From IMG/VR virus record IMGVR_UViG_3300017527_001400, positions 1 to 64,000 of that record: 64,000 nt of DNA; one strand, written 5' to 3'. This stretch comes from a virus. Positions 15,955-47,268 of the stretch are shown here, in pieces; the first letter of the stretch is position 1; each line of letters starts with the position of its first letter. Position numbers and translations under genes: made by a program. Under the pieces are notes generated by a model. The model was not told the origin of the DNA. It was given only the letters and a program-made list of their open reading frames with translations, and searched no databases.

Positions 15955-16230
15955 GTATTCGAATAGTATTCCATATCATGCCTTCAGAAGCGATCAGATC
16001 CGATTTCATTAATAATAGCATGGGATAGCATGCCTTGCCGCATTATCCAGTTTGCTTCGACCCTATCTTATATAATTCAAATTCTATTTGGATTCGGTTC
16101 GATAAAACTCTACGCAATGCACTATCATCAAATGCAAAATCTCATAGGATCCAATAAAATCCTACGTTTATTATTTCAATACTGTACAAACAAGGATTGG
16201 CCTTAACAGTACAATAGTATTGAATGCTTA
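15955..16230 (+). repeat. NNN-AT pentamer array 1 (putative guide RNAs)
   Basis: cgaAT agtAT tccAT atcAT gccTT cagAA gcgAT cagAT ccgAT ttcAT...; continues up to the RBS of the RAMP gene. Confidence 0.8.
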
Positions 16231-16244
16231 TAAGGAGAGAGAAA

Positions 16245-16997
16245 ATGAAAAAGAAAGCACCAGGACCGTACACATTCAGAATTGTTGGACAGGCAGATTC
16301 CGCGTGGCGCGGGGCAGTACCGGACGATTGTGCAGATCTCAAAGTTGCACCCGAGAAAAATGTAAAGGAGCTCCTTTACATGATCGTCAAGGCAGAAGTT
16401 GAAAGACTCACACAAAAGGGTGATACAAAGGGGGCAGCTGAGGCTGTCAAAAAGTATCAAGATCATTCAAAACATCAATATGCGAATCCATTGAATGTTT
16501 TCAAAAAAGACAAGCAAAACGGTGATATCCCATGTATCGGTGCTCATTGTCTTTATGGTGGGTTTCGTGATGCTGCCGTTGAGCTTTTCCCGCAGTATTT
16601 CTATAAAACTGCTGCAGACCGTGGCAAAAAGCCATCGAACAAGCATCTTAGAAAATATGTTCATGTCCGTCCTTATCATGTTTTCTTGCATCGGCCTTCA
16701 ATGAATGGTAATGGTAAGATTATAAAAGAAGTGGATGGTGTTCATGATCAACATCCTACGCCAAAAGTCGGGGCCTTTTGTCGTTATGAATTTATTGATT
16801 CTCCATTTCAATTTGAATATCTTCTAAATGTTTCCATCGAAGGCCCCTTCAAAAAGTTCCTGGAAAATCAACACGAAGTTAAAATGGCAATCGTTCAATC
16901 AGCAAATGCCGGTCAAGGCGGCGGAAGGGCAGCAGGTTATGGAATGTGGAGGATACTCAAGTGCAAGGTTGAAGATGGCCTGTCGTATACGCCGTAA
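16245..16997 (+). CDS. stand-alone Cas7/RAMP-superfamily protein
   Basis: GDIPCIGAHCLYGGFRDAA resembles the RAMP P-x-I-x(4)-L-x-G-x-x-R helix; C-terminal Gly loop GQGGGRAAGYG; no other cas genes in window. Confidence 0.75.
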   Translation: MKKKAPGPYTFRIVGQADSAWRGAVPDDCADLKVAPEKNVKELLYMIVKAEVERLTQKGDTKGAAEAVKKYQDHSKHQYANPLNVFKKDKQNGDIPCIGAHCLYGGFRDAAVELFPQYFYKTAADRGKKPSNKHLRKYVHVRPYHVFLHRPSMNGNGKIIKEVDGVHDQHPTPKVGAFCRYEFIDSPFQFEYLLNVSIEGPFKKFLENQHEVKMAIVQSANAGQGGGRAAGYGMWRILKCKVEDGLSYTP

Positions 16998-21324: not shown

Positions 21325-22101
21325 ATGGCAGGAAAGCTACACGAGCTCTTGGCGGTAGAAGGGGACCTCGAAGGAATCTGGAGGAAGGTTCTCGCTGAAG
21401 CACTCAACACATTCACCAAGAAGAAGAACCATTTCATCGGCTTTGTTCGTCCGCTCGTTATGTTTGCTGATGAACGGCAGAAAGAAAATACCACGGAGCA
21501 AGTTGCTCGGACTACTACTGTCCGTGAAAAACTTGCTTATGTCTGGGTCTCTACCATTCGCTACTTCAATGCGATCGCTCAAAAAGAAAGCACAAATCAA
21601 ACAGCCTGTGCTGATCTCGTGGTTGGTGGAAAGGTTCTGCTCCCACAGATGCCGGCTACTTTATTGCTTGGTTTGGAAAGCCGCTTGCGTCAAGTCCGCG
21701 AAGTATATGCAGGAATTCCTACGCTTCCACCGGGTATCGAATGGAAATTAGATCCTTCGGTGGCAGATGATGTCTATAAATCTGAGGTTCCAGAGGAAGC
21801 TTTCAAAACTGAAAAGGTTTTCAGGGCTCAGGTTTTATACGAAGCTAAGTTCCCCAAGGATGGGGAAGGTGGGTCTTCGTTGCCGGCTCAGGTCGAGAAA
21901 ATCGCTGAGACGGTAAACATCGGTTTGTATAAAAAGACGTATTGGGCTGGCATGCTGTCGACAGCAGAGAAGTCTGAGTTGCTTGAAAAAGTTGACGAAT
22001 TACTTCGCTCTGTCAAACAGGCCCGGCAGCGTGCCAACTCAACAAAGATCGTGAAGCTTGACATTGGCCAAGTTTTATACGATTATATCCATAAGCCCTA
22101 A
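21325..22101 (+). CDS. conserved phage coiled-coil protein (KLHELLAVE family)
   Basis: AAGGAGG RBS; PATLLLGLESRL, GIPTLPP, VKQARQRAN. Confidence 0.7.
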   Translation: MAGKLHELLAVEGDLEGIWRKVLAEALNTFTKKKNHFIGFVRPLVMFADERQKENTTEQVARTTTVREKLAYVWVSTIRYFNAIAQKESTNQTACADLVVGGKVLLPQMPATLLLGLESRLRQVREVYAGIPTLPPGIEWKLDPSVADDVYKSEVPEEAFKTEKVFRAQVLYEAKFPKDGEGGSSLPAQVEKIAETVNIGLYKKTYWAGMLSTAEKSELLEKVDELLRSVKQARQRANSTKIVKLDIGQVLYDYIHKP

Positions 22102-22220
22102 CCTTCGAAGAAACCCTTACGAGGCAAGGCTGTAACCACTGCTTAACGAAAGGAGTACATGATGTTCTATTGCATAGGAGGTGGCCCATTCTGGTAACTA
22201 TCTAAAGGAGGTGATCCAGA

Positions 22221-26486: not shown

Positions 26487-27017
26487 ATGCTACTATCCAA
26501 TACACGATCAAAGTTGGCTGCCATCGCAACGATCTTGTCAATTATGGGGCTCATAACGTTTGCATTGTTCATACTTGAAGAGGCTATGCAAACGATAATG
26601 TTTGGCACTTGGGCTGCTCAAGATGCTGGCGATTGGGCTTTGGTTTTGGCTGGTTGCGAGACAAATCGCAAAATCAACAGAACATTAAAAATTGTGAACT
26701 ATTCCGTCGGGTGGATTCAACCATTCGCATTCATAGCTTATCGAAGTTATGGAGAAGCAATGGATTTTTACATTGAAGCGCTCGAACGTAAAATTCTGAG
26801 GCGGGAGCCAGGATTATTTATCGGCAAAGAATTAACTTTAACCGTACAGCCCGTGAACCACAAGAAACTTGCCGGTGAATACCTTATCAGAACAAAGTCG
26901 AACCTATTGGTACTGTCAACTGAACAGCTGAGACGGGGTCAAGAAGTCAGCGGAATAATAACAAAGTACAAGAACACTGTGGCATTGACCATAGAGACAT
27001 CCAAGAAAGACAACTGA
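26487..27017 (+). CDS. membrane-anchored protein, paralog of 43005-43358
   Basis: GLITFALFILEEAMQT...WIQPFAFIAYRSY vs GLVTFSMFIMQEAQQT...WINPYAHFAYRSY. Confidence 0.6.
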   Translation: MLLSNTRSKLAAIATILSIMGLITFALFILEEAMQTIMFGTWAAQDAGDWALVLAGCETNRKINRTLKIVNYSVGWIQPFAFIAYRSYGEAMDFYIEALERKILRREPGLFIGKELTLTVQPVNHKKLAGEYLIRTKSNLLVLSTEQLRRGQEVSGIITKYKNTVALTIETSKKDN

Positions 27018-27044
27018 ACGGGTTGTAAAATGCAAGGAGACGCT

Positions 27045-27749
27045 ATGACAGGAAAAGATGTTGCTGTAAAGGAGAAGTACGCAATCATGAACCCGGAACA
27101 AAACGTCATGGAAATCATTCAGTTGAACTTGGGTGGAGAGGCTCTGTCAATTTCAGATCTCGACACAATCAAGACGCCAGCTGGTGGTTCTACGATGTGG
27201 ACGATTCCAACGGCTGGAGATGACGAGATCGTAAAGGAATTCTCTGGTGTAATTATTCACTCCCAGATTCAACGAACATATTGGGAAGATGAATATTCCG
27301 GCAAGGGTCAACCGCCCGATTGTTTTTCAAACGATGCCGTAGTTGGTACTGGCATCCCCGGCGGTGATTGCTGTGACTGTCCGAATGATGAATTCGGATC
27401 TGCACGAAAAGGCAAAGGCAAGGCTTGCTCAACGAAACGTATCATGTTCATCCTCCGAGAAGATAGTCTGTTGCCGACGGTTCTTCGGGTTCCAGTTGGA
27501 TCCTTGAAAAACAGTCGAAACTATCTCAGCTCACTTTCCAACAAAGTCCAAGCGATGCACGGTGTTTTCACCGAGTTTGGTCTGGAGAAGGCTACGAATA
27601 CCGGCGGAATCGAATATGCCAAAATCACGTTCAAAAGGACGGGGGTTCTGACACCTGAAGAGGTCAAGGCAGTTGTGGCCTACAAGGAAAAGATCCTGCC
27701 TTATATTGACCAGGCCGCATCAGTTTTCATACCGGAAGAGGCTAAATAA
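27045..27749 (+). CDS. putative ssDNA-binding replication protein with Cys motif
   Basis: PPDCFSND...CCDCPNDEFGSARKGKGKAC; directly upstream of primase. Confidence 0.55.
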   Translation: MTGKDVAVKEKYAIMNPEQNVMEIIQLNLGGEALSISDLDTIKTPAGGSTMWTIPTAGDDEIVKEFSGVIIHSQIQRTYWEDEYSGKGQPPDCFSNDAVVGTGIPGGDCCDCPNDEFGSARKGKGKACSTKRIMFILREDSLLPTVLRVPVGSLKNSRNYLSSLSNKVQAMHGVFTEFGLEKATNTGGIEYAKITFKRTGVLTPEEVKAVVAYKEKILPYIDQAASVFIPEEAK

Positions 27750-27758
27750 GGAGCTACC

Positions 27759-29423
27759 ATGACAACATTTCTTCAGGATCTATACAAAGGTAAACCAAAC
27801 GATCATCACATCTTAATATGGACTCTGAAAGGAAAACGCTCCAAATGGTTTAAGACGGTAAAGGAAGCGGAGGACTTCATAAGTGCCAACCCTGATGATA
27901 CATACTTCGGGGTTGGCACAAGTATTAAGGACTTCGGACCTTCGAAACGATGCACAAAAAGTAAAATTTCAGGAATTCCCGGGCTATATGTTGACATCGA
28001 TATAAAGCCCGATGGCGAAGACAGCAAAGCCCACAAGGGTAAGAAGTATCCCAAAAGTATGAAGGAAGCTCTGTCACTGGTCGAAGGACAGGGCATGGAT
28101 CCAAGCATTATCATAAATAGCGGTTATGGATTACACTGCTATTGGCTATTCGATGATTTCTGGTCATTTGATAATAACGCTGAACGCCAACAAGCTGCAG
28201 AGCTCGAACAACGTATGAACGCCACGATCTTGAACCGTGCGAAACGCAACGGCATGGCGATAGACAGCGTGTTCGACTTGTCTCGGGTTTTGCGGCCTGC
28301 GGGAAGCAATAATTGCAAACGCAAAAAGCCTGCTGCAGTGACTGTACAATCAGACAGTGGTAAAAGATATGATCCTCTTGACCTCGAACGTGACCTCGAC
28401 AAACTCCCTGACAAAAAAATAAAAGATACACATAGAACTTTCTCAGACATAAAGATAGATCCGGGATTAAAGGTCAATCCAAAGGTAGAGATCAAGGCGG
28501 ACGATTTATTCGAGCTATCAGCACAGCAAGATCAATTCAATGCTACATGGGCAGGTAAACGAGGCTTCAAAAGCCCATCAGAATACGATTTAAGTCTGGC
28601 GAATATGGCTGTAGAAGCCGGATGGAGTGATCAAAAGGTCGTCAACCTGATTATCCATCATCGACGCAAAACCGGAGAGCTTGATCCGGTCAAAATGACT
28701 AGAAAAGATTATTTTGATCGAACAATAAGACTTGCAAAAGAAGCTGCTAAAAAAAACGAGTTTGAACGGCTTACAGACAAAATCGTGGCAAGCGGGACGA
28801 TTTTTGATCAAAAAACTATTCAAGATGTTACAAATCACATAAATAAGCTGCTAAAACCTCTCAAGTTTGTAGAAATCAGAAAGCATATCAACGAACCAAA
28901 AGTAGATTATTTTATAGACGTCATTGCACCTGATGGAACGGCTTGGGAGATAAAACTTGAAGGTAGCTTACAAACTAGACTGCTGTTTATAAAAAACCTT
29001 CAAGACAGAACAAATGTACGCCCCAGAATCGGCGTCAAGCAATGGGATGCCTTGTCTCAGGCATTCAGCATCGTTGTTGTAGAGGTTGAGCGATCTCTCC
29101 GGATGGAGCAGATACAAGATGCAACAGTTATCTATGTTGAAAAGTTCATTGCAAATAAAAACGTCAAGCTTAAAGAAGTCTGGTCTTCGGGTCAGCCATT
29201 CAAGCATAAAGGTGAATGGGTCTTAAATGTCAAAAAGTTCCACACATGGTTCACCCTTGCAAACAATGAAGGCGATTACGATCAGAAAAGCCTCAGAGCC
29301 GATCTCAAGGAGGCCGGCTTCAAAGGCATTAACATCTGGCTGGTAGAACATCAAGCAGATGGAAGCTATCTTCGAAAGAAGAAGGCTTATATGAAGATCC
29401 CCAAAAGCTGGCCACTGCCTTAA
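27759..29423 (+). CDS. RepB-type (AEP) DNA primase
   Basis: YVDID, INSGYGLHCYWLF, DLSRVLRPAGSNNCK, SPSEYDLSLA. Confidence 0.85.
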   Translation: MTTFLQDLYKGKPNDHHILIWTLKGKRSKWFKTVKEAEDFISANPDDTYFGVGTSIKDFGPSKRCTKSKISGIPGLYVDIDIKPDGEDSKAHKGKKYPKSMKEALSLVEGQGMDPSIIINSGYGLHCYWLFDDFWSFDNNAERQQAAELEQRMNATILNRAKRNGMAIDSVFDLSRVLRPAGSNNCKRKKPAAVTVQSDSGKRYDPLDLERDLDKLPDKKIKDTHRTFSDIKIDPGLKVNPKVEIKADDLFELSAQQDQFNATWAGKRGFKSPSEYDLSLANMAVEAGWSDQKVVNLIIHHRRKTGELDPVKMTRKDYFDRTIRLAKEAAKKNEFERLTDKIVASGTIFDQKTIQDVTNHINKLLKPLKFVEIRKHINEPKVDYFIDVIAPDGTAWEIKLEGSLQTRLLFIKNLQDRTNVRPRIGVKQWDALSQAFSIVVVEVERSLRMEQIQDATVIYVEKFIANKNVKLKEVWSSGQPFKHKGEWVLNVKKFHTWFTLANNEGDYDQKSLRADLKEAGFKGINIWLVEHQADGSYLRKKKAYMKIPKSWPLP

Positions 29424-30469
29424 TTAAATAATACAAAAAGAGGAATCATGGACAAAGCCTTCGAAAGCACAGCAGAACTGTTTCTGCACATCGCTACCCT
29501 GGCCATCGCAAAGAAGTCTTCGCCAAAGGATTGGCTGGAGACAGATGACAAGATGTTTATACAGCTATTAGTTCCCCGGGCGGTGCAAGATGAACTTGGC
29601 AGAGTGTTCAGATCCGCCAAGGACTCTGGGCTTTTCAAAGAGGACGTTGTACAAACCGATATCGAAACAGACCTGTTTATGGGATACCTCATAACAGGCT
29701 TGTGGCAAAGCATTGAAGAAGAGGAAGAAAAATGGAAGAAGATATCAAAGAAATTAGATATATATTAAGCCGAACAGAATCACACCTTGGCGAGATGTTG
29801 ATGACCTTCAAGACGGCCCTAGAACCAAGGCCAGCTCCAGTCGAGGATGGTCTTCTTCCGTCGGACTTCCATGAAGGCGGCACCAGCGGCCGGATCGGAT
29901 GGCTCCGTGTGGAAAAGGCGTTATCTATTATCAAACAGTCTTTGGCCAGAATGAATAGGATGGATGGTAGTATTAACATAGAACCAGTATTTCAGGAGCT
30001 AATCGAGACGCTAACCAAGTACCAAGAATAGGATAAAAGGAGAGAATTATGAAATTCGAAGGATTTAAACATCAAGAACACGAATCGGCAGCAATTCAAC
30101 TGGGTCAAGCAATCAAAACCATATCAGGCATGACCATGCAGATATTGGCCAAATACGGTCGAAGTTCACTGGCCTACAAGAAAGCCGTTGTTGCGCAGCG
30201 ACGGGCCTTTGGGTTACAGGATGAAATGAACGACCAATATATGTTCGAACGAGCGGAAATCTTAAAGCAGGTTCCGGAAGTAATGCACAACGGTTTTCCG
30301 GTCGATTTGTACCTGAATTGGGATGACCACAATGTGGTGGGCGCAGGCGGCAATGACGCTATGGCGGATACCCACAAAGTAGTACCCATCGATTCTGGCA
30401 AATTCGGCGAATCTCAGTCCGTGTAAGGTGCTACATTGTAGTGTTTTTCTCTGGGTTTTGTGAAAAAGC

Positions 30470-30815
30470 GAAGAAAAAAACATGAAAAAAACGACCGAAA
30501 AAAAGGTTGAATTAGTGGAAAAAAAAGTTGAATTTTCGGGAAAAAAGGTTGAATCAACCAAAAACTTTTTTGGGCTATGCTGAATGATATCACAGACTTA
30601 ACCCAAATTAGGCGTTATTCTATATAGGGTAATAAAACAAGTCATATGGTAGGTGGGTGGAGAAAAGGTTGACAATGAATGATATCAGTAGGTTATGAAG
30701 AATATTCAACTAAAAACACGTATTATTCAACCAAAAAGCAATGAATATTCAACCAAAAAAAGAAAATAATCAACTAAAAAGACATGAAAAAAGAAAAATT
30801 CAACCTTTTTTTATT
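30470..30815. repeat. putative replication origin with GTTGA/TCAAC iteron-like repeats
   Basis: Four AAAARGTTGA and about six TCAACYAAAAA/TCAACCTTTT copies in an A-rich intergenic region between primase and helicase. Confidence 0.6.
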
Positions 30816-30850
30816 GTGGCGCATAAAAAGAGAAAAAATGGAGAAAATAT

Positions 30851-32509
30851 ATGCTAAATGAATACCGACTTTTTGGGCCTCCGGGGACTGGAAAAACGAC
30901 AAGACTTGCAAAAGTGTCAATTCCAAAAGCTGTAAAGAAATACGGGTCTGATGGAGTTGTGGTAACGTCCTTTACAAAAGCTGCAGCAAAGCAAATAATC
31001 AGTAAAGGATTAGAGGTTGACGATAATTGTGTGGGGACTCTTCATTCTCTGTGCTACAGGGCTTTGGGTTTTCCAAAATTGACCGCCCAGGATAACTTCT
31101 CTGAAAAATGGAACACGGCATATCCGAGACTTCGGGTCTTTGGGTCTAAACTCGGATCCTTAGATGAAGGTGGTGTGAATGAGCGTGGTGATACTGATGG
31201 AGACTCGTTGCTGTATAAGATGGACATCGCAAGGGCGAAGATGATTCCAAAAGAAAAATGGTTTCAGCCTGTTGCCAGCTTTTATAACAAGTGGACGGCA
31301 TTCAAAAATCTTCATGCTGTAATGGATTTTACAGATCTTATAGAAGAAGTTGTTAAACAGGGCATACCGCCACCCGGAAAGGCGAAGGTAATGTTTGTGG
31401 ATGAAGCCCAAGACCTGACGCCTCTTCAATTAAGTTTAATCCGAGGTTGGGGAGAAAATATGGACTGGATCATGCTGGTTGGAGATGATGACCAAACCAT
31501 CTATTCTTTCACCGGTGCCAGTCCAGATGCCTTTCTGCAACCAGAAATACCAGACGACAGGAAAATGGTCCTTGATCAATCATATAGAGTGCCCATCTCT
31601 GTGCATAACGTTGCCAAGACTATTACGAATCGTATTAGATATCGTGAGGCCAAGGAATACAAGCCCAGACCTGAGAACGGAGCTGTTAGATCGATCGAAG
31701 AGACATATTCTGGCCCAGACGAAATAATCGATGACATCGAAAAGCAGTTGAAATTGAAAAGAACTGTTATGGTTTTGGCATCGTGTTCATATATGATTGA
31801 ACCGGTAAGGAAGGCACTGGTCGAAAACAACATGCCTTTCGGCAATAAATACAGGTCTACGAGAGGTGACTGGAATCCGCTCGCAAGAGGCGGTGAATCA
31901 AGGACATCCGCAAGAGACCTGCTATTTACATTCCTATCGAGTGGTTCGGATAATAAATATTGGAATGTACCACAGTTTGTAGCTTGGGCTTCACATATAG
32001 GAGTAGGGAAAAACGGCCTAAAGCGTGTTGTTGGTAAAAAGGTCCTGACTAAACTTAAAGAAGAGATCGAAAAGAACTCAAAAGGTCTCAACAGCACAGA
32101 GAACGTTTTAAGCTTGGCTCTTTCTGATGATGCTATAGAGCCGGCATTGGCCAGAGACGTAGACTGGCTGATGACAAGCCTGCTTCAGAAAAGAAGAAAG
32201 CCTCTTGAATATCCAATCAAGTTATATAAGAAATTCAAAACAAAAGACATTCTTGAAGGTCATCCGCCAATAACCATAGGAACGATCCATTCGGTAAAAG
32301 GAGGAGAATCTGATGTGGTTTATCTTTACCCAGATATATCAGCAGCTGCTGCAAGAGAGCAGGCAAATGGCGATATTTCTGAAGATTCTCTGTTTCGATT
32401 ATTTTATGTTGGTGTAACTCGAGCAAAACATGAGCTTGTTCTAATGTCACCATTAATGAAGAGATCTGGTAGAGGAAAGCAAAAATTAGCTTATTTTGTA
32501 GACATATAG
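30851..32509 (+). CDS. UvrD/Rep-family SF1 helicase
   Basis: GPPGTGKT, VDEAQD, VGDDDQTIY, QSYR, TIHSVKGGE, YVGVTRAK. Confidence 0.9.
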   Translation: MLNEYRLFGPPGTGKTTRLAKVSIPKAVKKYGSDGVVVTSFTKAAAKQIISKGLEVDDNCVGTLHSLCYRALGFPKLTAQDNFSEKWNTAYPRLRVFGSKLGSLDEGGVNERGDTDGDSLLYKMDIARAKMIPKEKWFQPVASFYNKWTAFKNLHAVMDFTDLIEEVVKQGIPPPGKAKVMFVDEAQDLTPLQLSLIRGWGENMDWIMLVGDDDQTIYSFTGASPDAFLQPEIPDDRKMVLDQSYRVPISVHNVAKTITNRIRYREAKEYKPRPENGAVRSIEETYSGPDEIIDDIEKQLKLKRTVMVLASCSYMIEPVRKALVENNMPFGNKYRSTRGDWNPLARGGESRTSARDLLFTFLSSGSDNKYWNVPQFVAWASHIGVGKNGLKRVVGKKVLTKLKEEIEKNSKGLNSTENVLSLALSDDAIEPALARDVDWLMTSLLQKRRKPLEYPIKLYKKFKTKDILEGHPPITIGTIHSVKGGESDVVYLYPDISAAAAREQANGDISEDSLFRLFYVGVTRAKHELVLMSPLMKRSGRGKQKLAYFVDI

Positions 32510-32585
32510 CGCCGACATGTTATATTAACCCTTTGGTGATAAGCGCCTATGTATACAATAAACTCGGTAGCAAAAAGCGCAGATA

Positions 32586-32617
32586 CCCGGCTCGTCTAGC
32601 AACCCATGGGAAACGAG
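32586..32617 (+). repeat. single TIGR-like unit
   Basis: CCC-ggctcgtct-AG-caac-CCA-tgggaaacg-AG just before ATG 32619. Confidence 0.55.
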
Positions 32618-32618
32618 T

Positions 32619-32840
32619 ATGAATTTAAGAAGAGAAAGATGCGGATTATGTATTCATTTTCGCCATCATGAAGACTTTAAACAGTTCAGGTTGGCTTATC
32701 AGTGTCAATACTATTATCTTTCATTTCAGCAAAGAAAATATGTGAATTGGAATACAAATAGATGCGAACGTTTTGAACGAAGCTTTAAGAGAATGATTAA
32801 ATACATTGCAAGGAATAGTAAATGTCGCCAATTACGCTAG
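32619..32840 (+). CDS. Cys-rich small protein (RCGLCxH family)
   Basis: RCGLCIH...C...CERF; paralogs at 34735 and 35124. Confidence 0.55.
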   Translation: MNLRRERCGLCIHFRHHEDFKQFRLAYQCQYYYLSFQQRKYVNWNTNRCERFERSFKRMIKYIARNSKCRQLR

Positions 32841-33122
32841 ACGTCGATGAAACAGGCGAAGTAGTACGAACAGATAGACCCAAGCAAGAAGTCGCTGAAA
32901 AAGAGCAATCAGATGCAATTCCGAAGTGTTTTAACACATTTCCGTGCGACCAGTTGACAAAAACGGATGATAAGTGCTACTGTAACGTCTCAAACGGGGC
33001 AATATACTCTCTGGATGAATGTCCAAGAGGATATTGGTATATACCAGAGAGACGAAAACCAAAGATTCAAAATCGAACTTCCTGGTATGAGGAAAATCAT
33101 AGGTTACGCCAGGAGGAAATCA

Positions 33123-33722
33123 ATGGGAAAAATCCTATGGACCGACACGGAGACGACGGGACTGGACTCAAAGAAAAACTCAGCGATTGAAATAGCTGCC
33201 ATTGTTGAAATCGATGAAGAAGTAAAAGATCAATTTTCAATCCAAATCAAACCACTTGAAAATAAAGAAATCAGCGATAGGGCTCTTGAAATAAATGGCC
33301 GCACCCGGGAGGAGATCGCCGAATTCACTCCAGTTGATCTTGCGATATTAAGCTTTAAGAAAAGGCTGGAAAAACATGTCAACAAATTCGACTCGTCAGA
33401 CAAATTTATTGTTGCAGGATATAATATTGGTTTCGACATAAACTTTATTCGAGCTCTTTTCCATGACGTCGGTGATAAGTATTATGGCAGTTACTTCTTT
33501 AATTGTCCTCTTGACGTCTACTCCGACGTTGCAAAGCTCGTGTCAAAAACAGATCTCAGACTCCCTAATTATAAGCTTAGCACAGTCTGTAACCATATTG
33601 GAATCGAGATTGATGCGCACGATCCAGTAAGCGACATAACTGCCACCCGGGAGCTTTATTATCGATTGCAAACAATGACTCCGAAATATGTTCGAAGAAA
33701 AAATCCAGTGACGGCCCAGTAG
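33123..33722 (+). CDS. DEDDh 3'-5' exonuclease (DnaQ-like)
   Basis: DTETTG, AGYNIGFD, AHDPVSDITAT; AGGAGG RBS before ATG 33123. Confidence 0.9.
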   Translation: MGKILWTDTETTGLDSKKNSAIEIAAIVEIDEEVKDQFSIQIKPLENKEISDRALEINGRTREEIAEFTPVDLAILSFKKRLEKHVNKFDSSDKFIVAGYNIGFDINFIRALFHDVGDKYYGSYFFNCPLDVYSDVAKLVSKTDLRLPNYKLSTVCNHIGIEIDAHDPVSDITATRELYYRLQTMTPKYVRRKNPVTAQ

Positions 33723-33831
33723 CTCCCAGAAAACCAACGCGCCAGAGGCCCTTAAAAGGGAAGGTACCCATTAGAGAAAAAGGCCCGCGCTAACCAAGTT
33801 ACCCAAAGAACGCTTGGCCATAAAGGAGTAG
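33713..33831 (+). repeat. TIGR-like array segment A (3.5 units, ~34-nt period)
   Basis: GGC-CCN-N9-AG-N4-CCA-N9-AG at 33713, 33747, 33782, 33816. Confidence 0.7.
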
Positions 33832-33834
33832 ACA

Positions 33835-34050
33835 ATGGAAGGATGGAAATGTCCAGTATGCGGAAGGGGTCTTGCACCATTTGTTAATGAATGCCCATGC
33901 TATAAAGTAGATACTGTACAAGATGGGATCTCATGTATAGATTATTATTGGGAAACTTGTCCATTATGTTGGGTTTCTCATAGAAGAGGTGAGCCATGTA
34001 ATTGCGGATCGGTTTATAGTAGTGGTTCAGCCCCCATGCCGGCCCATTGA
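33835..34050 (+). CDS. small Zn-ribbon protein lying inside the TIGR-like array
   Basis: GWKCPVCGRGLAPFVNECPC; its RBS lies within a repeat spacer. Confidence 0.65.
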   Translation: MEGWKCPVCGRGLAPFVNECPCYKVDTVQDGISCIDYYWETCPLCWVSHRRGEPCNCGSVYSSGSAPMPAH

Positions 34051-34264
34051 AAGAGAGCAATCCAAAGGATAGAAGGCCCTCGGAAACCAAGCAATCCATA
34101 AGACCCTAGGCCAGGAAGTTATATTAACACGGTACGCTGAAGCCTCAAGGGTCAAGTAATCCATAGGATAGTAGCTAAAATAGGCCCTCGGGAACCGAGC
34201 AATCCATAAGACCCTAGGCCACTATTTCGAAGCCATTGTTTAAGAGTAACCCTAAAGGAGGGAG
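34041..34264 (+). repeat. TIGR-like array segment B (5 units)
   Basis: CCN-N9-AG-YAAY-CCW-N9-AG; unit at 34075 is nearly duplicated at 34183. Confidence 0.75.
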
Positions 34265-34267
34265 CTT

Positions 34268-34591
34268 ATCCCAAGAAGAACCGAAAAGGCAGTTGTTAAG
34301 ACCATCAAAGATGCTCTGAATAGTCTCGATCATTGCATGATTAGAAAGCGAAGATTGTATATTAGAGGCGATCCCGACTTAACAGGTTGTTATCTTGGGA
34401 CACGGCTCGAGCTTGAAGTAAAAACAATCGGCGGTAGCCCGACATCACTACAACTCAAGCGAATTGACGACTGGCAAAAGCTCGGATGTGTCTCAGCAGT
34501 TGTCTGGTCATTAAGTGACGTTATTAAAGCGATGGATTCGATTCTTTTAAGTAAAGACAAGAAATTGCTTGCAAATATGATCGAAGACTGA
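34268..34591 (+). CDS. VRR-NUC nuclease
   Basis: GDPDLTGCYLG, LEVK, TSLQ, VVWS; the frame extends upstream (TEKAVVKTIKDAL) to an ATC after an RBS, so the start is uncertain. Confidence 0.75.
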   Translation: MPRRTEKAVVKTIKDALNSLDHCMIRKRRLYIRGDPDLTGCYLGTRLELEVKTIGGSPTSLQLKRIDDWQKLGCVSAVVWSLSDVIKAMDSILLSKDKKLLANMIED

Positions 34592-34696
34592 TATCTTCAA
34601 ATCTCTAACACGGAAAATTTAACATTTCCGCCTCTGATTCATTTCCTCGAAGCCCGTTTGCGTGGCAGCCGCAAGCGGGTTTCCCTCGTTATGGGC

Positions 34697-34732
34697 CCTA
34701 TTCAGGCTAGCAACCCTTATATATACAGGCCA
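34697..34732 (+). repeat. single TIGR-like unit
   Basis: CCT-attcaggct-AG-caac-CCT-tatatatac-AG-g-CCA before ATG 34735. Confidence 0.6.
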
Positions 34733-34734
34733 TT

Positions 34735-35010
34735 ATGAAAAAACCAAATATAAAAGTAAAAAGATGCGGATTCTGTAAACATTACAGGAAACTTCGCATT
34801 TCTATAAATGGAGTCACAAGCGGATACGGCCCAATCATAACATTCTGCAACTTCTATGGAGACGAGCCAGCCCTCGACATAAACCATAACAAGTCGGCAT
34901 GTGAAAACTTCAAACGAGATTTTAAGAAAACTGCTATATATATAATCAACACAAGGAGAAGCCGTTATGACAACCAAAAGAAACGAAGAAAACATCGAAA
35001 GGTTAGCTGA
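34735..35010 (+). CDS. Cys-rich basic protein (RCGxC family)
   Basis: RCGFCKH...FC...SACENFKRD. Confidence 0.55.
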   Translation: MKKPNIKVKRCGFCKHYRKLRISINGVTSGYGPIITFCNFYGDEPALDINHNKSACENFKRDFKKTAIYIINTRRSRYDNQKKRRKHRKVS

Positions 35011-35123: not shown

Positions 35124-35570
35124 TTGGTTGATATGGATAAATATAAAAAAAGATGCGGCCTGTGTTCTCATTCTATAAAAAAATATTACATAGAAGACGA
35201 TCGAACCTATACTATAAGAGAATCTAATACATGCGACCTCTCTTTAACTCGAACCCGATATGTTGGCGATACAAAAGCTTCATGTAATAATTTTGCAATA
35301 GACATAAGGAAGCTCGCAAAATACCTGCATCGCATCGAAACGGATTCAAGATATAAGCTTATGAATAAGCGAGTCATAGGTCCAGACCCAATGCGAAGGC
35401 GATGTGGACTATGTTGTTCTTTTGTCAAACAATATAGCGGCTTCCATTATTATATAAAAGGGAAATGCAGAAGAAACATTAGAGGTCTTGTCGACCACAA
35501 CGAAGACGCATGTCGAAAATTCAGAAGAAGTAAAAAAAGAGTTGATGCATATATGAAAAAATGCCGTTAG
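35124..35570 (+). CDS. Cys-rich protein with two tandem RCGLC repeats
   Basis: RCGLCSH..ASCNNF and RCGLCCS..DACRKF. Confidence 0.55.
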   Translation: MVDMDKYKKRCGLCSHSIKKYYIEDDRTYTIRESNTCDLSLTRTRYVGDTKASCNNFAIDIRKLAKYLHRIETDSRYKLMNKRVIGPDPMRRRCGLCCSFVKQYSGFHYYIKGKCRRNIRGLVDHNEDACRKFRRSKKRVDAYMKKCR

Positions 35571-35638
35571 AAGTAAGTAACCCATGGCTAAAGAGCATTA
35601 TAAATACCATCCGGAATTAGCAATCCATCACAAACAAG
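35564..35638 (+). repeat. two TIGR-like units
   Basis: CCG-ttagaagta-AG-taac-CCA-tggctaaag-AG and CCA-tccggaatt-AG-caat-CCA-tcacaaaca-AG. Confidence 0.65.
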
Positions 35639-35884: not shown

Positions 35885-35911
35885 TAAGGGGGGCGCCAGG
35901 GTAGGGGGGTT
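35885..35911 (+). repeat. 27-bp G-rich direct repeat, copy 1
   Basis: TAAGGGGGGCGCCAGGGTAGGGGGGTT, identical at 40130-40156. Confidence 0.85.
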
Positions 35912-36165
35912 AAATCTCGTTAAGCGAGAAAAGAGCCTTTGGAAATCGAACAAATACACATTGTAGACACAACTGAAACCTACTGACCCAACAAAACCAA
36001 GAAACACAGCACAAAGAAAGCCTCTCAAAGCCTATTGCTCTAATATTATTATGAATTCTTTTTTCGTTTCAGAGAATCTCAGGTAAAAAGGAGGGATAGA
36101 CATAAAAACCTACTCTGAAACTCAAAAAGAGCAACCCAAAACAATCAAATTCAAAGGAGTTAACA

Positions 36166-36555
36166 ATGGAAATCACAAGCGCACAGAAAGCCGGTCAGCA
36201 GTACTCATTCTACCCCAACGGCCCCGAACGCTCGAGAAGCTTCGTCGTGATCCCCCGTGAAATGATCGACATGACAGACATGGGTCACGTAAAAGCGAAG
36301 TGGAGCCGCGTGGTAGCCTTCGGTGATCTCGCGGAAGCCATCAACAAACTCATGGATGACGGAGTAACGTTGTTCAAAATTGGAAAGGGTCGCATCCGCA
36401 AGAACGATCTGGAGCTGGACGATGGAGAAATCCTGAAATCCAAAGAGATCGTTGCCAAAACCCTGGACATGAAGGGATTCACCAAACTGATGAACTCCAA
36501 GGCTATCAAAGGCTCTGGAATTTACTCAGGCGACGAAGTCCCTGACGCTGGCTAA
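36166..36555 (+). CDS. SSB-like OB-fold protein
   Basis: KWSRVVAFGDLAEAI...GRIR...SKEIVA resembles the SSB core. Confidence 0.6.
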   Translation: MEITSAQKAGQQYSFYPNGPERSRSFVVIPREMIDMTDMGHVKAKWSRVVAFGDLAEAINKLMDDGVTLFKIGKGRIRKNDLELDDGEILKSKEIVAKTLDMKGFTKLMNSKAIKGSGIYSGDEVPDAG

Positions 36556-36650
36556 AATCTGATCCTTAACAATAACCTTGGTAGGGGCGATCGAAGCCCC
36601 TGCCAACAACCCGATTGCAACAAACAAGAAACCCAAACGGAGGAATCACC

Positions 36651-36998
36651 ATGAACTATGCAACGAAACGCATTCTGTCTATCATCACCTTGTCAGTCTC
36701 TCTGGTAATGCTCATATCCTTTGGCATCGCCTTTGGAGCTGAGGAAGTTGTCACTGGAGAAATCACGGACGTTGTCCAAGCCGTCGACAAAAACGGTGAG
36801 AGCTACACTCGCCTCATCGTCACCGTTGAAAGAACCCTCGAAGGCTCTGACTACCAAGTTGGATTACCCTTTATGGCATTCGGAAGCCAAGCGGAACCTG
36901 CTGCAGCACTGCAAGCCGGCGACGTTCTGAAAGCAATCTGTCAAACACGATTGTATCAGGGCAGGGAATCCTTCACCATCGTCAAGATCCTTGAATAA
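36651..36998 (+). CDS. signal-peptide-bearing OB-fold (SSB-like) protein
   Basis: MNYATKRILSIITLSVSLVMLISFGIAFG signal; MAFGSQAEPAAALQAGDVLKA. Confidence 0.55.
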   Translation: MNYATKRILSIITLSVSLVMLISFGIAFGAEEVVTGEITDVVQAVDKNGESYTRLIVTVERTLEGSDYQVGLPFMAFGSQAEPAAALQAGDVLKAICQTRLYQGRESFTIVKILE

Positions 36999-40129: not shown

Positions 40130-40156
40130 TAAGGGGGGCGCCAGGGTAGGGGGGTT
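40130..40156 (+). repeat. 27-bp G-rich direct repeat, copy 2
   Basis: Identical to 35885-35911. Confidence 0.85.
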
Positions 40157-40224: not shown

Positions 40225-40335
40225 CCCACCATCGAACGACCCAGTAACCAACCCAACCTTTCGATCACGCAGGCACTACCCACCATCGGACTTCCCAGTC
40301 ACCAACCCGGCTGTTCGATTACGCAGGCATCACTC
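40225..40335 (+). repeat. 54-bp tandem repeat (2 copies)
   Basis: CCCACCATCG..CCCAGT.ACCAACCC..TTCGATYACGCAGGCA at 40225 and 40279. Confidence 0.7.
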
Positions 40336-40442
40336 ACCCAAAGATCAAGACCAACCTCGCATGATTAGAGCGACCGGCTAAAAGACCGCCGTCGCTCTCA
40401 AAGCTCGGTACTTGCAGGATAACACAACTCAATTGAGCAGGT

Positions 40443-40863
40443 GATTCTCTCTACCGTTTCGATTTTCGATTTTTTCTGCAAGCTTTTTTTTCTCTCCTTG
40501 TTGAAGACAGGTTTTTGGTGACTACATTAGATTCCGGGAAGAACCGTGCCAGCCGGCGACAAGGCGAGCCCAGCGATGCACCGGTATATGAGGGTGTAAA
40601 ATCTAAGGATGTAAACAGAACATCCTTAGATTTTACACCCTCATATACCTGTCCCTTTGCGGGGGATAAGACATCGCCTTCGCATGCAACTTGCAAACAG
40701 AGCAAGTTGCACGCCAAGCCGATATCCCCCGCAAAGGCACTGCCCTGCTGGATCGCCGCCTGGCACGGTTCTTCCCTAGTGGGTTGATGTTAGTCACCAT
40801 AAACCTTCAACAAGGAGAGAAAAAATGCAGAAAAAATCGAAAATCGAAACGGTAGAGGGAATC
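40443..40863. repeat. ~420-bp branched (T-shaped) inverted repeat
   Basis: Outer arms pair; two inner hairpins each carry an AAACAGA loop. Confidence 0.85.
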
Positions 40864-41250
40864 GTGGATTGGGCGGGAGAGCATAACTGGAAATCCGGCA
40901 AAGGCTGGCACTACAGAGTGAAGCTTGTGTCGAAGCGTGTCGATCAGGTGATCCAAATAGACTGCTACAAAATGGCTCGACAGTCTGCAGCTGGCATGGT
41001 GCGTTCTAAGGCTGGATGGGATCACCGTCCGGAGTTGGCGATTCAGCAGGGCGATCGGGTGAGAGTACGAACGCCTCATTACAAAAGGGAGATGGACACC
41101 AACAAGAACAGCCAGAAATATACTCGCCACATCTACTCGGTCAACTATACCCGAGAAATTGAGGTGTTGGAGAGGTTGGAAGCCTGCTTACCTCCATCCG
41201 CCTACGCAAACCCCAGTAATCAATCGGGTTCAGCACCGAAGCCTGCCTAA
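40825..41250 (+). CDS. possible OB-fold protein embedded in palindromes
   Basis: AAGGAG RBS; beta-rich; IQQGDRVRV motif. Confidence 0.5.
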   Translation: MQKKSKIETVEGIVDWAGEHNWKSGKGWHYRVKLVSKRVDQVIQIDCYKMARQSAAGMVRSKAGWDHRPELAIQQGDRVRVRTPHYKREMDTNKNSQKYTRHIYSVNYTREIEVLERLEACLPPSAYANPSNQSGSAPKPA

Positions 41251-41907: not shown

Positions 41908-43550
41908 CCTAGTGCCCAGGCCGTGCGGGTAAAAATATATCACCCGCCCCCTTCTGAGGACGTCGGACAAAATTAGCATGGCTGAAAGTCGACCCTAAAA
42001 AATATTTTTACATTTTTCTGAACTTTTAATTTTTTAAGGAAACCCAAAGCCAATGCGAAAAGCGATCTGCATCAGCCCAACCCAAAGATTCGAGGTCAAC
42101 CAGCTATATAGCTACGAAGTCACGATGGAATTCGAGGACTTATATGAACTTGGCAGACCGATGCCCATAAAGATAGAAACTAAAAAAATTTATATTGTTA
42201 ACGGGTTTCATTTTTCGCAATACGAATTTGACAAGACATTCAGGAAATTCATATGAAACGAGTCTTATGCTTTCAGCGATCGTTGCCATTCAAGGTAGGC
42301 GGATTATATAGATTCATAATAGAAGAATATCAGGACAGAACCTACTATTTAGTTTACATCGGCAAAAGCTATCATGCTTATTCCAAACAATACTTCAAAG
42401 ACCATTTCGTACCATTCATCCAATAGCCATCGGAGATAATATGCCAAGTTACAATGACACAGTAAACATCTTAAAGGACCGCATCAAGGTTCTAATCAAC
42501 GACAACCCGGAGATCCTACAAATCGACGATCCATGGAAGCTGTTCGATTTCGAGGCGCTCGTCGTCTCGGATCTCGACCCGTCCCTTTTCCAAGCACAGT
42601 GGGCCCTATCACGAGCCAAGCAAGAGTGGCGACAAACTCACGGATGAAGGCCCTCTGTATTCAATCGATCATACCGTTTCAAGTCGGCAACCTGTACAGG
42701 TGCACCAAGTTTTTGACACCGCTCGGAACAGCAGAAGCATGGTCGGTGTGGAATATCAGGCAACCAAATACTAAGGTAGGCGGATTATATAGATTCATAA
42801 TAGAAGAATATACAGATGGCGGATATAATTATATTATGTCCGTGAATACCTTCAACCAGTATTTCAGGAGATTCATATGAAAGACTACGATCAGGGCCGC
42901 AGAGACGGCTATGACAAAACAGTCGACGAATCTAAAGAAGCCAAAAACCCAAAGTACAAAGAGGGTGTCATCAAAGGTATACTGGAACGATTAAAGGAGG
43001 AAAAATGAAGACTATATTATCGATTGCCTTCATATATTTGTCTTTGATAGGCTTGGTAACCTTCTCCATGTTCATTATGCAGGAGGCACAGCAAACAACT
43101 CAATGGGCTCTGAGAATATCGGAGCCTGACTTATATATGAAAGGCCAGCAGCTGAACGAAACCTTGTTCAAGCGAATGCGCTTTCTAAACCACATAGCAT
43201 GGATAAATCCTTATGCCCACTTCGCATACAGATCGTACATCGAGAATCGGGGTCCTCATACCAAAAGTGTCAATGTTAATACGTCGACCGACACCACCGG
43301 ACCCTTATGTTCAATTAAGCAAAAGAGAAGCCAAACTTTTGACGTCCTTCTTAATTGAAGAGGGACGGCCATATAATTTCACACCCGCGGGCCACTCTCG
43401 CATAAAGCTTGTGGCTGCACGCAACATGCCTGACAATGTGGAGCCTATTCAAGGCTTCAAATGGAATATCACAGACAAACGCAAGATTATTGTACAGGTA
43501 ACCCAGTTTTTCAGGGATAACGTAATCATCTTTCACGGAAGGCTACCATA

Positions 43551-43850: not shown

Positions 43851-44449
43851 TGGCCATCATCATACCCAAAAGAAACATCCAGGCACTGGATCTCTACCTG
43901 CTTAAAAAAGGCAAGCCCTACAAAGTGGTAAAACACTCAAAATATTTAAATCTGGTATCTGCTGACTACATACACTCGGCAGGGAAAATGACAATACCAT
44001 TGGGATTCTTTCATTTATCCTCTTCTGATATTATTGTTTTTTCTGGACAAATAAATGCAAAGGGCTTTTGAAAGGCTCAACCAAAAGAATGTAAAGAAAA
44101 TGGTAATTTGATTGATGTTGATACATTACCAATGAAAGCACTTTTGGACATGGTGTTGTGTTGGTTTGTATTAAAAATAAATGTATTTGTAGTTCAAAAG
44201 TATGTAAAGATGAAAGGATTTAATAATGAAAGAAATTAAATATGTATGGGTTGTTGAAGGAGAAGAAGGAGAAGATGTAAGTTGGATAGATACTATATTT
44301 GCTGATGAAAAAGATGCACAGATAGAAATGGATAGACTTAATAAAGAATACAAACAGCATAGTACTGTTTATTTTGTAGAAAAATATCCAATAAAATGAA
44401 AATAATATAGTAAAGATTTAAAATTAGTCCGATTCGATTAACCCAATTA

Positions 44450-44481
44450 CCACAAAAGAGGAGAAACCCATGAGCATCGTG
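44450..44481 (+). promoter_or_regulatory. TIGR-like unit overlapping the RBS and start codon of the Nop-domain gene
   Basis: CCA-caaaagagg-AG-aaac-CCA-tgagcatcg-TG; ATG at 44470. Confidence 0.6.
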
Positions 44482-45264
44482 CTGAAAGCTATCGTCAGAG
44501 GCCATTACGACTTACAAAAACTAAGAATTCAGGCTGGGAATCGAATTATTGCGAATTTTCGGTCAAAATTGGACATTGCGCCGTCCGATAAGGCTGAAAA
44601 AGCTGCCTTATCGTCAATAAAGACCGAATTTGCGGCTCTACCAGCCATAAAGTCCAAGAAACACTTCAAAGGCACGCCAATAATTGCCGAATATCCGGAA
44701 TATGTGCTGGTTAAGAGCTACGTTGCCCTGTTGGAAAGCGAAAAACAAGTCATCAAAGAAATCACCCAGATCGTCAACGAACATCCGCTGTACATCTCGT
44801 TCCTATCCTCCATCAAGGGTATTGGTCCACTCATGACCGGGATCCTCCTGACAGAAATCGATATCTCCAAGGCCGATACGCCGGCAGCCCTGTGGAAATA
44901 TGCTGGACTTGACGTCACCTCAAAAGGTGAGGGCCGCTCCCGCCGGGCAGAGCATCTAGTCGACCGAGAATATACCAAGGCCGACGGAACTGTCGCCACA
45001 AAGAAATCCATTACCTATAATCCACGCCTGAAGACCAAACTTATGGGAGTCCTGGCACCATCCCTTATCAAACAGCAGTCTCCGGACTATGCTCCAGTTT
45101 ATTACGAATACAAAACCCGTCTCGAAACCAGTCGACCGGAAATGGTCAAAGGCCATATGCACATGATGGCCCTGCGATACATGACGAAGCGCTTCCTGAA
45201 GCATCTGTATTTGAATTGGAGGAAACTCGAAAATCTGTCGGTGACTGAACGATGGACATCGTAG
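44470..45264 (+). CDS. Nop-domain / IS110-C-terminal-like RNA-binding protein without nuclease (TasA-like)
   Basis: YDLQKLRIQAGNR coiled coil; FLSSIKGIGP, ALWKYAGL, YNPRLKT, KGHMHMMALRYMTKRFLKHLY; no N-terminal DEDD/RuvC or HNH domain. Confidence 0.75.
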   Translation: MSIVLKAIVRGHYDLQKLRIQAGNRIIANFRSKLDIAPSDKAEKAALSSIKTEFAALPAIKSKKHFKGTPIIAEYPEYVLVKSYVALLESEKQVIKEITQIVNEHPLYISFLSSIKGIGPLMTGILLTEIDISKADTPAALWKYAGLDVTSKGEGRSRRAEHLVDREYTKADGTVATKKSITYNPRLKTKLMGVLAPSLIKQQSPDYAPVYYEYKTRLETSRPEMVKGHMHMMALRYMTKRFLKHLYLNWRKLENLSVTERWTS

Positions 45265-47268
45265 ATGTCCTACATAAAGGAATGGTAATGGGGGCAATAT
45301 CAAAATCAAAAGCTTATGCAGGCGCAGCAGTGCACCAGCCCGAAGTCACAATAAAAGCTGTATGCTTGGAACCGGTCTTTATCTTCGAATTACACAGGCT
45401 TTATAAATTCAAAGTGTTGATACAATCTGACTCCGACGGATACCTAACTGAAGAGAAAACATACAGGCACAACGAAGAAATTGACGACGGCCTCTGCTGG
45501 ATAGCCCTTGGAGAAGAAGCCTTCAAAAAGCATTTCAGAAAGTTTCAATAATGATACTGATAGCAAAAAGAACGATAAAATTACAAGATATAAAGAAATT
45601 GATCCCGGACTCTCATAAGTTCAAGTTGCCACCGAAACGGGAACATTATGAAGGAACGGTCATCTTTACTGAAGGTAAGCCCTACAAAGTCACCATCAGC
45701 GAGACCGGTGTGGGCTCTATCCAAACAGATGCTGGAATATTCTTTATATACGCCAAGGGTGACGGAGAAGTCATTCCAACAGAGTTCTTCAGGATCTTCA
45801 CGAGATGATCCTGATTGCCAGATTTGATATTATGCTCGGCAAAAACATTATCTTTAAAAAAGGCGAAGTATCAAAAGCATGGTTTGATGGAAAAGACATG
45901 GCATATTTTGATGATCCAAAGTGCCATATACGTGTTGATAGAATCGGCTACTATTTCATAATATTTAAAGGTGATAATGGTCATAATAGCTAAAAAAGAC
46001 ATATTGATAAACAAACAGATAGTCTTCAAGAAGGGCCAAGTCATCAATGCCTGGAGAGGAGGCGATAAATTCGTCTATTACAAAGGCGGTCGAATGGGAG
46101 AGACTGTCATGAGAGAGCTTTTCGTAGTCTTTAAGGATGATCCAATATGATCTTGATCTGCAAAAAAACCATATCAAGTAAAACGTTCAAAAAAATAATA
46201 CTCGGCTTTAATTCAAAAATGGGTGATGACTTAAAAAAAGACCTCGAGTCTGACAAAGCTGTATTTATAGAAGGCAAACATTATAAAATGAACGTTAATA
46301 AAGATAGAAGAATCATGAGCAGTGAAATTGGCACAATAACCATGTTTCACTCCAGCAAAATAATGGAAGCTCTATTACAAGAATGCTTCATAATCTTTTC
46401 AAAAGGAGAAAAAGAATGACAACACAAGGCCAACGAAACTATGCAGTAGAAAGAATAAGAGGGAAAGTCGGTGAAAAATTGGAAGCAGCCAAGCATGAGT
46501 TCCATATCGAAGGAAAAGGACTTACAAACATGCAACGGCTGGATCTTATCCGAAAAGGAAAGGTTACGCTTCTCCCAAAGAAAGAATTGAGTTTACTGCG
46601 GAATTGGGACCGTACCAACATCAAAGACGTCTTTGATTTCAGTGAATATGCATGGGAATCCGGCGTAGACAAGAAAAAATACGGCAAACGCGAAAAAGCC
46701 ATTCTCACAGAATCCAACCGGATTATTGACGAAGTTATGCTTGGCGATGCCAAAGAAGCCATGAAACTTCTCAAAGCCTTCGAAACCTTCTAATGAAGTT
46801 TATTTGCCTGAAATCTGTCCATATATTTGTAGAAAACCATTTATATACGCTAACAAGCTGCGAAACAGCTTATGACCTAAAAACAGGCAGAGCAATGGTC
46901 AGATTTAAGTTTTTAGACAATAATACGTTTTATACGGCAAAAGAGAAAGAATTCAAAAAAATGTTCAGGAGATTCGACTAATATGAAGCCCAACGTCAAA
47001 AAGTACATAAAAGACGATACAAGTTGCCCATTTTGCGAATCCATAAAGATCGTACCTGAAGATGCCATCTCAACTGACCTTAAAGGCGCATCCCAGCATA
47101 TCGCATGCCATAACTGCGGAGCTGAATGGTATGATCAGTACACGCTCACGGGGATCAGTGTATGCGTCGAGCCATCTGCATAAAAGATATCTACCCTTAT
47201 TTCAAAGACAATCACCTGAAATTTTTATTATCTTCTGAATTTATTTATTAACCCAAAGGAGAGAGCTT

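Follow-up and report, generated by a model that had tools for sequence, protein, structure and literature searches.

TIGR-Tas systems were first described in 2025 (Faure et al. 2025, PMC12045711), and the dual-repeat TIGR-TasA of Flavonifractor plautii (FpTasA) from the same study is the one that resembles the phage locus analyzed here. As in the phage, its protein is a solo coiled-coil plus Nop protein, and its array is built of an edge repeat, a 9-nt spacer A, a loop repeat, and a 9-nt spacer B, with a CCA-like box C and the same box D in edge and loop (AG in the phage). The period is 36 nt in the described system, and 34-35 nt in the phage, with a 7-nt edge AGGCCCn. Furthermore, dual-repeat relatives have a long array beside tasA, and nearly all keep a C-terminal Tyr/His tail, whereas the phage has two mini-arrays and solo units 9-12 kb off, and a TasA without this tail.

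In TasR, the two protomers divide the guide between them: according to the structure, one reads boxes D and C of the loop repeat, and the other reads the two edge halves (PMC12045711). Full edge repeats are necessary for processing (Faure et al., PMC12045711). In SpTasH, Y289 and H296 form a metal-independent dyad, which processes the pre-tigRNA (PMC13421893). Xu et al. 2026 (bioRxiv 10.64898/2026.09.09.750476) reported TIGR units that overlap the tas coding sequence or lie within it, and suggested that tigRNA maturation and Tas translation are linked.

The window, that is, the whole stretch of 64,000 nucleotides that was analyzed, forms part of a tailed phage genome of 78,408 bp (42.6% G+C), which encodes a terminase, a portal protein, a major head protein, helicases, and a primase. 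The gene of interest is the following.

44470..45264, + strand: tasA, 264 aa, coiled coil plus Nop domain, nuclease-free TIGR-associated protein without the C-terminal Tyr/His processing tail

Profile searches and a predicted structure identify ORF 44470-45264 as tasA, and its product as the nuclease-free effector in a TIGR-Tas system of the dual-repeat type. The first-pass annotation had placed a nuclease-less TasA-like ORF here, and this is borne out by the match to NCBIfam NF052498 (TIGR_Tas_endo, equivalog), with 141.5 bits over residues 6-251 (cutoff 100). The best sequence match to a solved structure is TaTasR (PDB 9mty; E 1.2e-14, residues 89-262), followed by SpTasH, and Pfam recognizes only a short Transposase_20 core (residues 111-161). 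The AlphaFold2 model, built with 36 sequences, has a pLDDT of 92.8. It opens with a coiled-coil helix (residues 2-30), the first of three long N-terminal helices, and continues with the Nop domain. In Foldseek, this model matches TasR and TasH first (TM 0.66, probability 1.00) and then IS110-family recombinases, with IS621 next in rank and Prp31 and Nop56/58 as weak matches after it, so the structural check proposed with the first-pass annotation came out in favor of its assignment. No RuvC or HNH counterpart was found in TasA by HMM, in the AlphaFold2 model, or in the alignment with TaTasR, of which residues 1 to about 110 are unmatched. The ORF upstream of tasA (44226-44399) has no nuclease match either. 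RNA-guided DNA binding by TasA is putative.

An IS110-family RNA-guided transposase was rejected as the identity of this ORF: the model NF033542 reaches 38 bits, far below its cutoff of 140, and matches the C-terminal part only, and there is no N-terminal DEDD/RuvC-like match. The first-pass annotation had also counted two unrelated nuclease-free RNA-guided systems in this phage, a claim that is not supported, since the alleged Cas7/RAMP ORF (16224-16997) has no match in Pfam, PHROGs, or NCBIfam.

The metagenome scan returned no TasA relative above 50% identity, and for the neighboring helicase a single relative, at 39% identity, was found in IMG/VR. The region directly upstream of tasA (43900-44450) is AT-rich, with 29-32% G+C, compared with 44-53% in tasA and 42.6% genome-wide. 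Small paralogous ORFs ending in F(R/K)KF lie on both sides of the gene (42053-42880, 45252-45551, 46793-46981); the one member of this family that was tested had no family match.

Array units occur on the + strand between 32.6 and 36 kb, as two mini-arrays and several solo units with genes in between. The bit scores below refer to a weight matrix built from 10 units of this distant array only, with the tasA leader outside the training.

22094..22128, + strand: isolated candidate unit AGCCCT-N9-AGAAACCCT-N9-AG, 20.1 bits, outside the training set, 10 kb from the others
32583..32617, + strand: solo unit ATACCC-N9-AGCAACCCA-N9-AG, 21.3 bits, or 16.3 when left out of the matrix
33713..33831, + strand: mini-array 1, three 34-35-nt units with edge AGGCCCn, 9-nt spacers, and loop AGnnAnCCA
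34041..34264, + strand: mini-array 2, about six units, with loops AGCAATCCA, AGTAATCCA, and AGTAACCCT
34694..34728, + strand: solo unit GGCCCT-N9-AGCAACCCT-N9-AG, 23.6 bits, outside the training set
35561..35638, + strand: two solo units with loops AGTAACCCA and AGCAATCCA, and 5' edges ATGCCG and ATACCA, similar to the tasA leader

The units are built from a 7-nt edge, which reads AGGCCCn, or ATACCn in solo units, and a 9-nt loop, AGyAAyCCA, each followed by a 9-nt spacer, and they have a period of 34-35 nt. Edge and loop repeats both start with AG and end with CCN, which corresponds to the box D/box C covariation rule of Faure et al., with AG replacing UG. Alternating edges and loops, spacers of about 9 nt, and common boxes C and D are thus those of a dual-repeat array, in a short and scattered form. 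In the arrays of TasA relatives, the loops include AGAAAACCA (340 units), AGAAACCCA (191 units in 52 of 112 loci, the second commonest of the clade), and AGCAACCCA (58 units), and the AGCAATCCA loop is identical to one in the canonical array of relative L052. Because their loops are the same 9-mers as in canonical 36-nt arrays beside homologous tasA genes, the distant repeats represent cognate TIGR repeats. Their transcription and processing into tigRNAs are putative. A DNA search of INPHARED with positions 27001-35000 returned no match.

Several units abut genes. The truncated fourth unit of mini-array 1 (33816-33831) holds the Shine-Dalgarno (SD) sequence of ORF 33835, and a spacer in the last unit of mini-array 2 (34230-34264) carries the SD for 34268. 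The solo unit at 32583-32617 stops 2 nt short of the ATG of ORF 32619, and the one at 34694-34728 is followed by GCCATT and then by the ATG of ORF 34735. Further downstream, AGAAACCCA is followed by a 9-mer holding the SD of the ATG at 36651 (36627-36653), and AGCAACCCA precedes, at a somewhat greater distance, the SD that serves the ATG at 36167 (36130-36170). As no box C lies upstream of them, these two look like half-units.

Other features of this region are recorded here for completeness. Paralogous small CxxC (zinc-finger-like) genes are found among the TIGR units (32619-32840, 34735-35010, 35134-35570), and in two cases a solo unit immediately precedes the start of the gene. ORF 34256-34591 encodes a VRR-NUC-like endonuclease (phrog_93, E 1.3e-12), in which the match begins at residue 5 if the frame is read from 34268, while its first ATG, GTG, or TTG comes no earlier than 34337. 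An ATC start at 34268 is possible, because a strong SD, AAAGGAGGG, lies in the last array unit 5 nt before the ATC codon. An identical 22-nt G-rich motif, GGGGGGCGCCAGGGTAGGGGGG, is present at 35888-35909 and 40133-40154 (0 expected). Both copies precede a short hairpin and are sited in the two large non-coding stretches. A long near-perfect inverted repeat at 40440-40865, with an inner hairpin at 40581-40651, overlaps the start of ORF 40825 with its right arm. The region 40225-40329 was rejected as an array, as it has a C-rich 54-nt unit in two diverged tandem copies (TRF score 147) and no box/spacer pattern.

A unit of the same type lies over the translation start of tasA itself.

44447..44481, + strand: TIGR-like unit over the tasA translation start, TTACCA / caaaagagg / AGAAACCCA / tgagcatcg / TG
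44450-44452, + strand: box C-like CCA of the leader unit
44453-44461, + strand: first 9-mer of the leader unit, caaaagagg
44462..44470, + strand: intact loop repeat AGAAACCCA, read from the sequence
44471-44479, + strand: second 9-mer of the leader unit, tgagcatcg
44480-44481, + strand: 3' TG of the leader unit

The unit is as the first-pass annotation had described it, and can be read directly from positions 44450-44481. The motif link which that annotation drew between the gene and the distant array also stands, since the leader carries the same repeat type. The SD, GAGGAG (44458-44463), takes GAGG from the first 9-mer, which ends there, and AG from AGAAACCCA, whose final A doubles as the A of the tasA ATG (44470). 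Thus, a single loop repeat provides the end of the SD, the spacing between SD and ATG, and the first base of the start codon. By position, the cognate loop repeat overlaps SD and start codon of tasA as an autogenous operator would. The 3' box of the leader unit is TG, instead of the AG that is box D in this clade. Together with a coding-side half that is not conserved (see below), this leaves box C, 9 nt, and the intact loop repeat as the solid part of the unit. The leader RNA folds no better than its shuffles (z 0.6), and promoter-like sites in the leader are not above chance. The lack of both RNA structure and a promoter counts against the proposal that the unit serves in autorepression of tasA.

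An ordinary start, with an SD, an A-rich spacer, and CC before the ATG, might merely resemble a TIGR unit. The literal CCA-caaaagagg-style pattern of the first-pass annotation occurs once in the window, compared with 0.10 expected. On the array matrix, the leader unit scores 13.5 bits (rank 15 in the 78-kb genome), below all true array units, for which leave-one-out scores are 15-29 bits. Among candidates outside the training, it comes after those with 23.6 (34694), 20.1 (22094), 15.4, and 14.3 bits, and is followed by evident noise at about 13 bits. In dinucleotide shuffles, 1.08 matches of at least 13.5 bits are expected per genome (157 kb, both strands), and therefore the leader unit is borderline and not significant genome-wide on its score. 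A score lower than that of any bona fide array unit, at the upper limit of the genome noise, speaks for a fortuitous resemblance and against autorepression alike. Position adds to the score. The per-position probability of a match with at least 13.5 bits is 7e-6, and with 1.08 matches expected per genome, a match at the tas start (about 50-400 positions) has a p of about 3e-4 to 3e-3. It is unlikely that the unit came to lie on the tas start by chance.

The start style of the phage bears on the same two readings. CC precedes the ATG at 11 of 129 starts, and an SD with A-rich spacer and CC-ATG is common, for example at 49062, where AGTAAGCC-ATG is of the AG-N4-CC-ATG type. This favors a chance resemblance and weakens the case for autorepression, but it does not explain the CCA at -20 and the exact consensus 9-mer. 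The combination of this CCA with an exact AGAAACCCA and with a site on the gene of a repeat-binding protein has a p of roughly 5e-4 to 5e-3.

Start sites were compared among 137 loci with TasA relatives of at most 50% identity, a set to which neither the identical P0001 (on an 87-kb contig) nor the 69%-identical P0002 belongs. In most of the 57 viral loci, 36-nt arrays adjoin or overlap tas, upstream or downstream, and the phase-aligned leaders indicate that arrays extend into the tas start site. Among 112 dereplicated loci, 10 have the terminal box D at a distance of 7-12 nt upstream of the tas ATG, compared with 13 of 1145 random positions. The spacer before this box usually ends in AGG, and hence forms AGGAG with it. 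Four of 105 homologous tas starts match the layout [CT]CA-N9-AG-N4-CC-ATG exactly, compared with 4 of 2869 other ORF starts (0.14%). This recurrence in four relatives is a further argument against a fortuitous resemblance, which we consider unlikely.

The four relatives with the exact layout differ in register. L002 and L061 have an edge repeat at the start (AGCGnGCC-ATG), and L025 and L088 are in the loop register, as in the phage. The leader of L025 reads ATACCA aaccacagg AGGAAACCA TG and comes after two degenerate units, and that of L088 reads AACGCATCA cacacaagg AGAACACCA TG. The first-pass annotation would have counted an absence of the motif from homolog leaders against itself, and this refutation fails; arrays commonly enter tas starts, and the four relatives share the identical placement. 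On the coding side, box D is missing in all four (AC, GA, AA, GT). The complete two-site unit is thus not conserved, and the TG of the tasA leader may be accidental. This, and the fact that the 3' box of the phage is TG and not AG, argues against autorepression. In the light of these leaders, the phage unit most likely stems from an array that formerly adjoined tasA, as arrays do in the relatives today, and would represent its last unit.

Such a descent could be all there is to explain. The unit would then be a neutral relic, the last unit of the ancestral array, in which the purine-rich repeat was co-opted as SD, spacer, and start and was kept for initiation only, without regulation by TasA. 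We regard this account as a serious, if tentative, contender, about equally likely as autorepression, and it explains most of the comparative pattern equally well. The arrays of the relatives end in truncated or degenerate repeats, 7-50 nt from the ATG, as compaction predicts, and the half of the unit on the coding side lacks conservation. Where tas has no array upstream of it, solo 9-mers of the loop type show only a weak enrichment at the ATG (2 of 50 vs 17 of 1767), which fits a relic and weakens the case for autorepression. Compaction alone predicts that arrays enter the start of the next gene, and in the phage this is seen at other genes, namely those that draw their SD from the terminal unit of either mini-array and ORFs 32619 and 34735 with a solo unit directly before them. 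On the other hand, initiation requires neither a 5' CCA at exactly 9 nt nor a CC in front of the ATG, yet the phage has both. The loop repeat is intact and not truncated, and L025 retains CCA-N9-AGGAAACCA-TG behind its degenerate units. Taken together, we consider that a real array-derived element lies at the tasA start, and that autorepression through it is plausible.

The median length of the TasA relatives is 288 aa, and their C-terminus reads LEGLPVxxxY(S/H)EAKLGxxH, a tail (Y-x(5-9)-H) that aligns with Y289/H296 of SpTasH. The phage protein, the 3' end of whose gene is at 45244-45264, is about 12 residues shorter and ends in LENLSVTERWTS-stop. W262 occupies the Tyr column. The protein stops two residues later, ahead of the K-L-x3-H columns, and so has no His. 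Inspected by eye, the tail is missing in four of 225 unique relatives: the phage TasA, L024, and two truncated records. A frameshifted tail was also sought by eye, and nothing resembling KLGxxH follows the tasA stop in any of the three frames. TasA and SpTasH (PMC13421893) have the same Nop fold, and the relatives of TasA keep the aligned tyrosine and histidine, but the phage protein has W262 in place of the first and lacks the second. With W262 and no His, it represents a TasA of the dual-repeat clade without the known self-processing residues. The loss of the tail, which had gone unnoticed in the first-pass annotation and is new here, is read from the predicted protein. In the phage, the tail-less TasA is paired with a shortened edge repeat.

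The missing dyad bears on whether the leader unit is an active guide. In that case, it would be processed into a tigRNA with the spacers CAAAAGAGG and TGAGCATCG, directed at DNA of the host or of a competing element, and one tasA mRNA would be lost per event. All four box positions are filled at the correct 9-nt spacing, 5' edges of a similar, ATACCn-like kind are seen in the solo units at 32583, 35561, and 35604, and units inside tas genes are still processed in other systems (Xu et al.). Nevertheless, the SD and the first codons fix the spacers, which leaves these no freedom to fit a target. Moreover, the 3' end has TG as its box and no full edge repeat, and TasA is without the processing dyad. 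Finally, no target was found in the phage genome or in related loci. A search of the 78-kb genome for 18-bp self-targets of 15 units, in either split-strand geometry, gave none with up to 2 mismatches, and matches with 3 mismatches were as frequent as in controls. In 1.24 Mb of related loci, targets with up to 2 mismatches were at control level. An active guide at this position is improbable.

We favor autorepression by occupancy. The loop repeat is probably the sequence that one TasA protomer reads, via box D and box C. On the leader of its own mRNA, TasA would therefore shield SD and AUG alike and compete with the ribosome, which would result in a negative feedback on TasA synthesis. As TasA is without the Tyr/His tail, the feedback would act by occupancy and not by cleavage of the leader. 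Three steps of this scheme are inferred: the position of the unit within the tasA transcript, the binding of TasA to the leader RNA, and translational repression as a result. Where relatives combine the edge register with an intact dyad, a cut inside the edge repeat would instead part the SD from the AUG. We assign a probability of roughly 0.4 to a negative feedback of TasA through the leader repeat by occupancy.

A wider version of this scheme would treat TIGR repeats as cis-acting RNA operators, through which a tail-less TasA that binds and cannot cut controls its own and neighboring mRNAs in a post-transcriptional regulon. The genes in its scope would be the ORFs from 32619, 33835, 34268, and 34735, and those with half-units before 36167 and 36651. 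We find such a regulon rather unlikely. Apart from regulation, the missing tail, the short edge, and the scattered units point to a dual-repeat lineage that matures its guides otherwise, or not at all. If true, the autorepression of tasA would be the first regulatory circuit for the TIGR-Tas family, in which a guide-RNA repeat is reused as an mRNA operator.

Among RNA-binding proteins, several autoregulate their translation by recognizing a mimic of their main RNA target in their own leader, such as the archaeal L7Ae (K-turn), RegA and gp32 of T4, and the MS2 coat protein. In the phage, as in these cases, the RNA motif cognate to a protein overlaps SD and AUG of the gene that encodes it. The phage locus differs in the nature of the putative operator, which is a guide-RNA repeat and not a hairpin or K-turn.

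Among TIGR-Tas systems, the loci of Xu et al. 2026 come near to this arrangement, as there too a guide-array element overlaps the tas 5' end. The SD, the ribosome, and autoregulation are not mentioned in that study, and our literature search found no TIGR paper that mentions them. The units described there are mainly stem-loop units within the ORF, in disordered protein segments. In the phage, by contrast, the loop repeat of a dual-repeat system is itself the segment from SD to AUG, in a solo unit whose array lies elsewhere.
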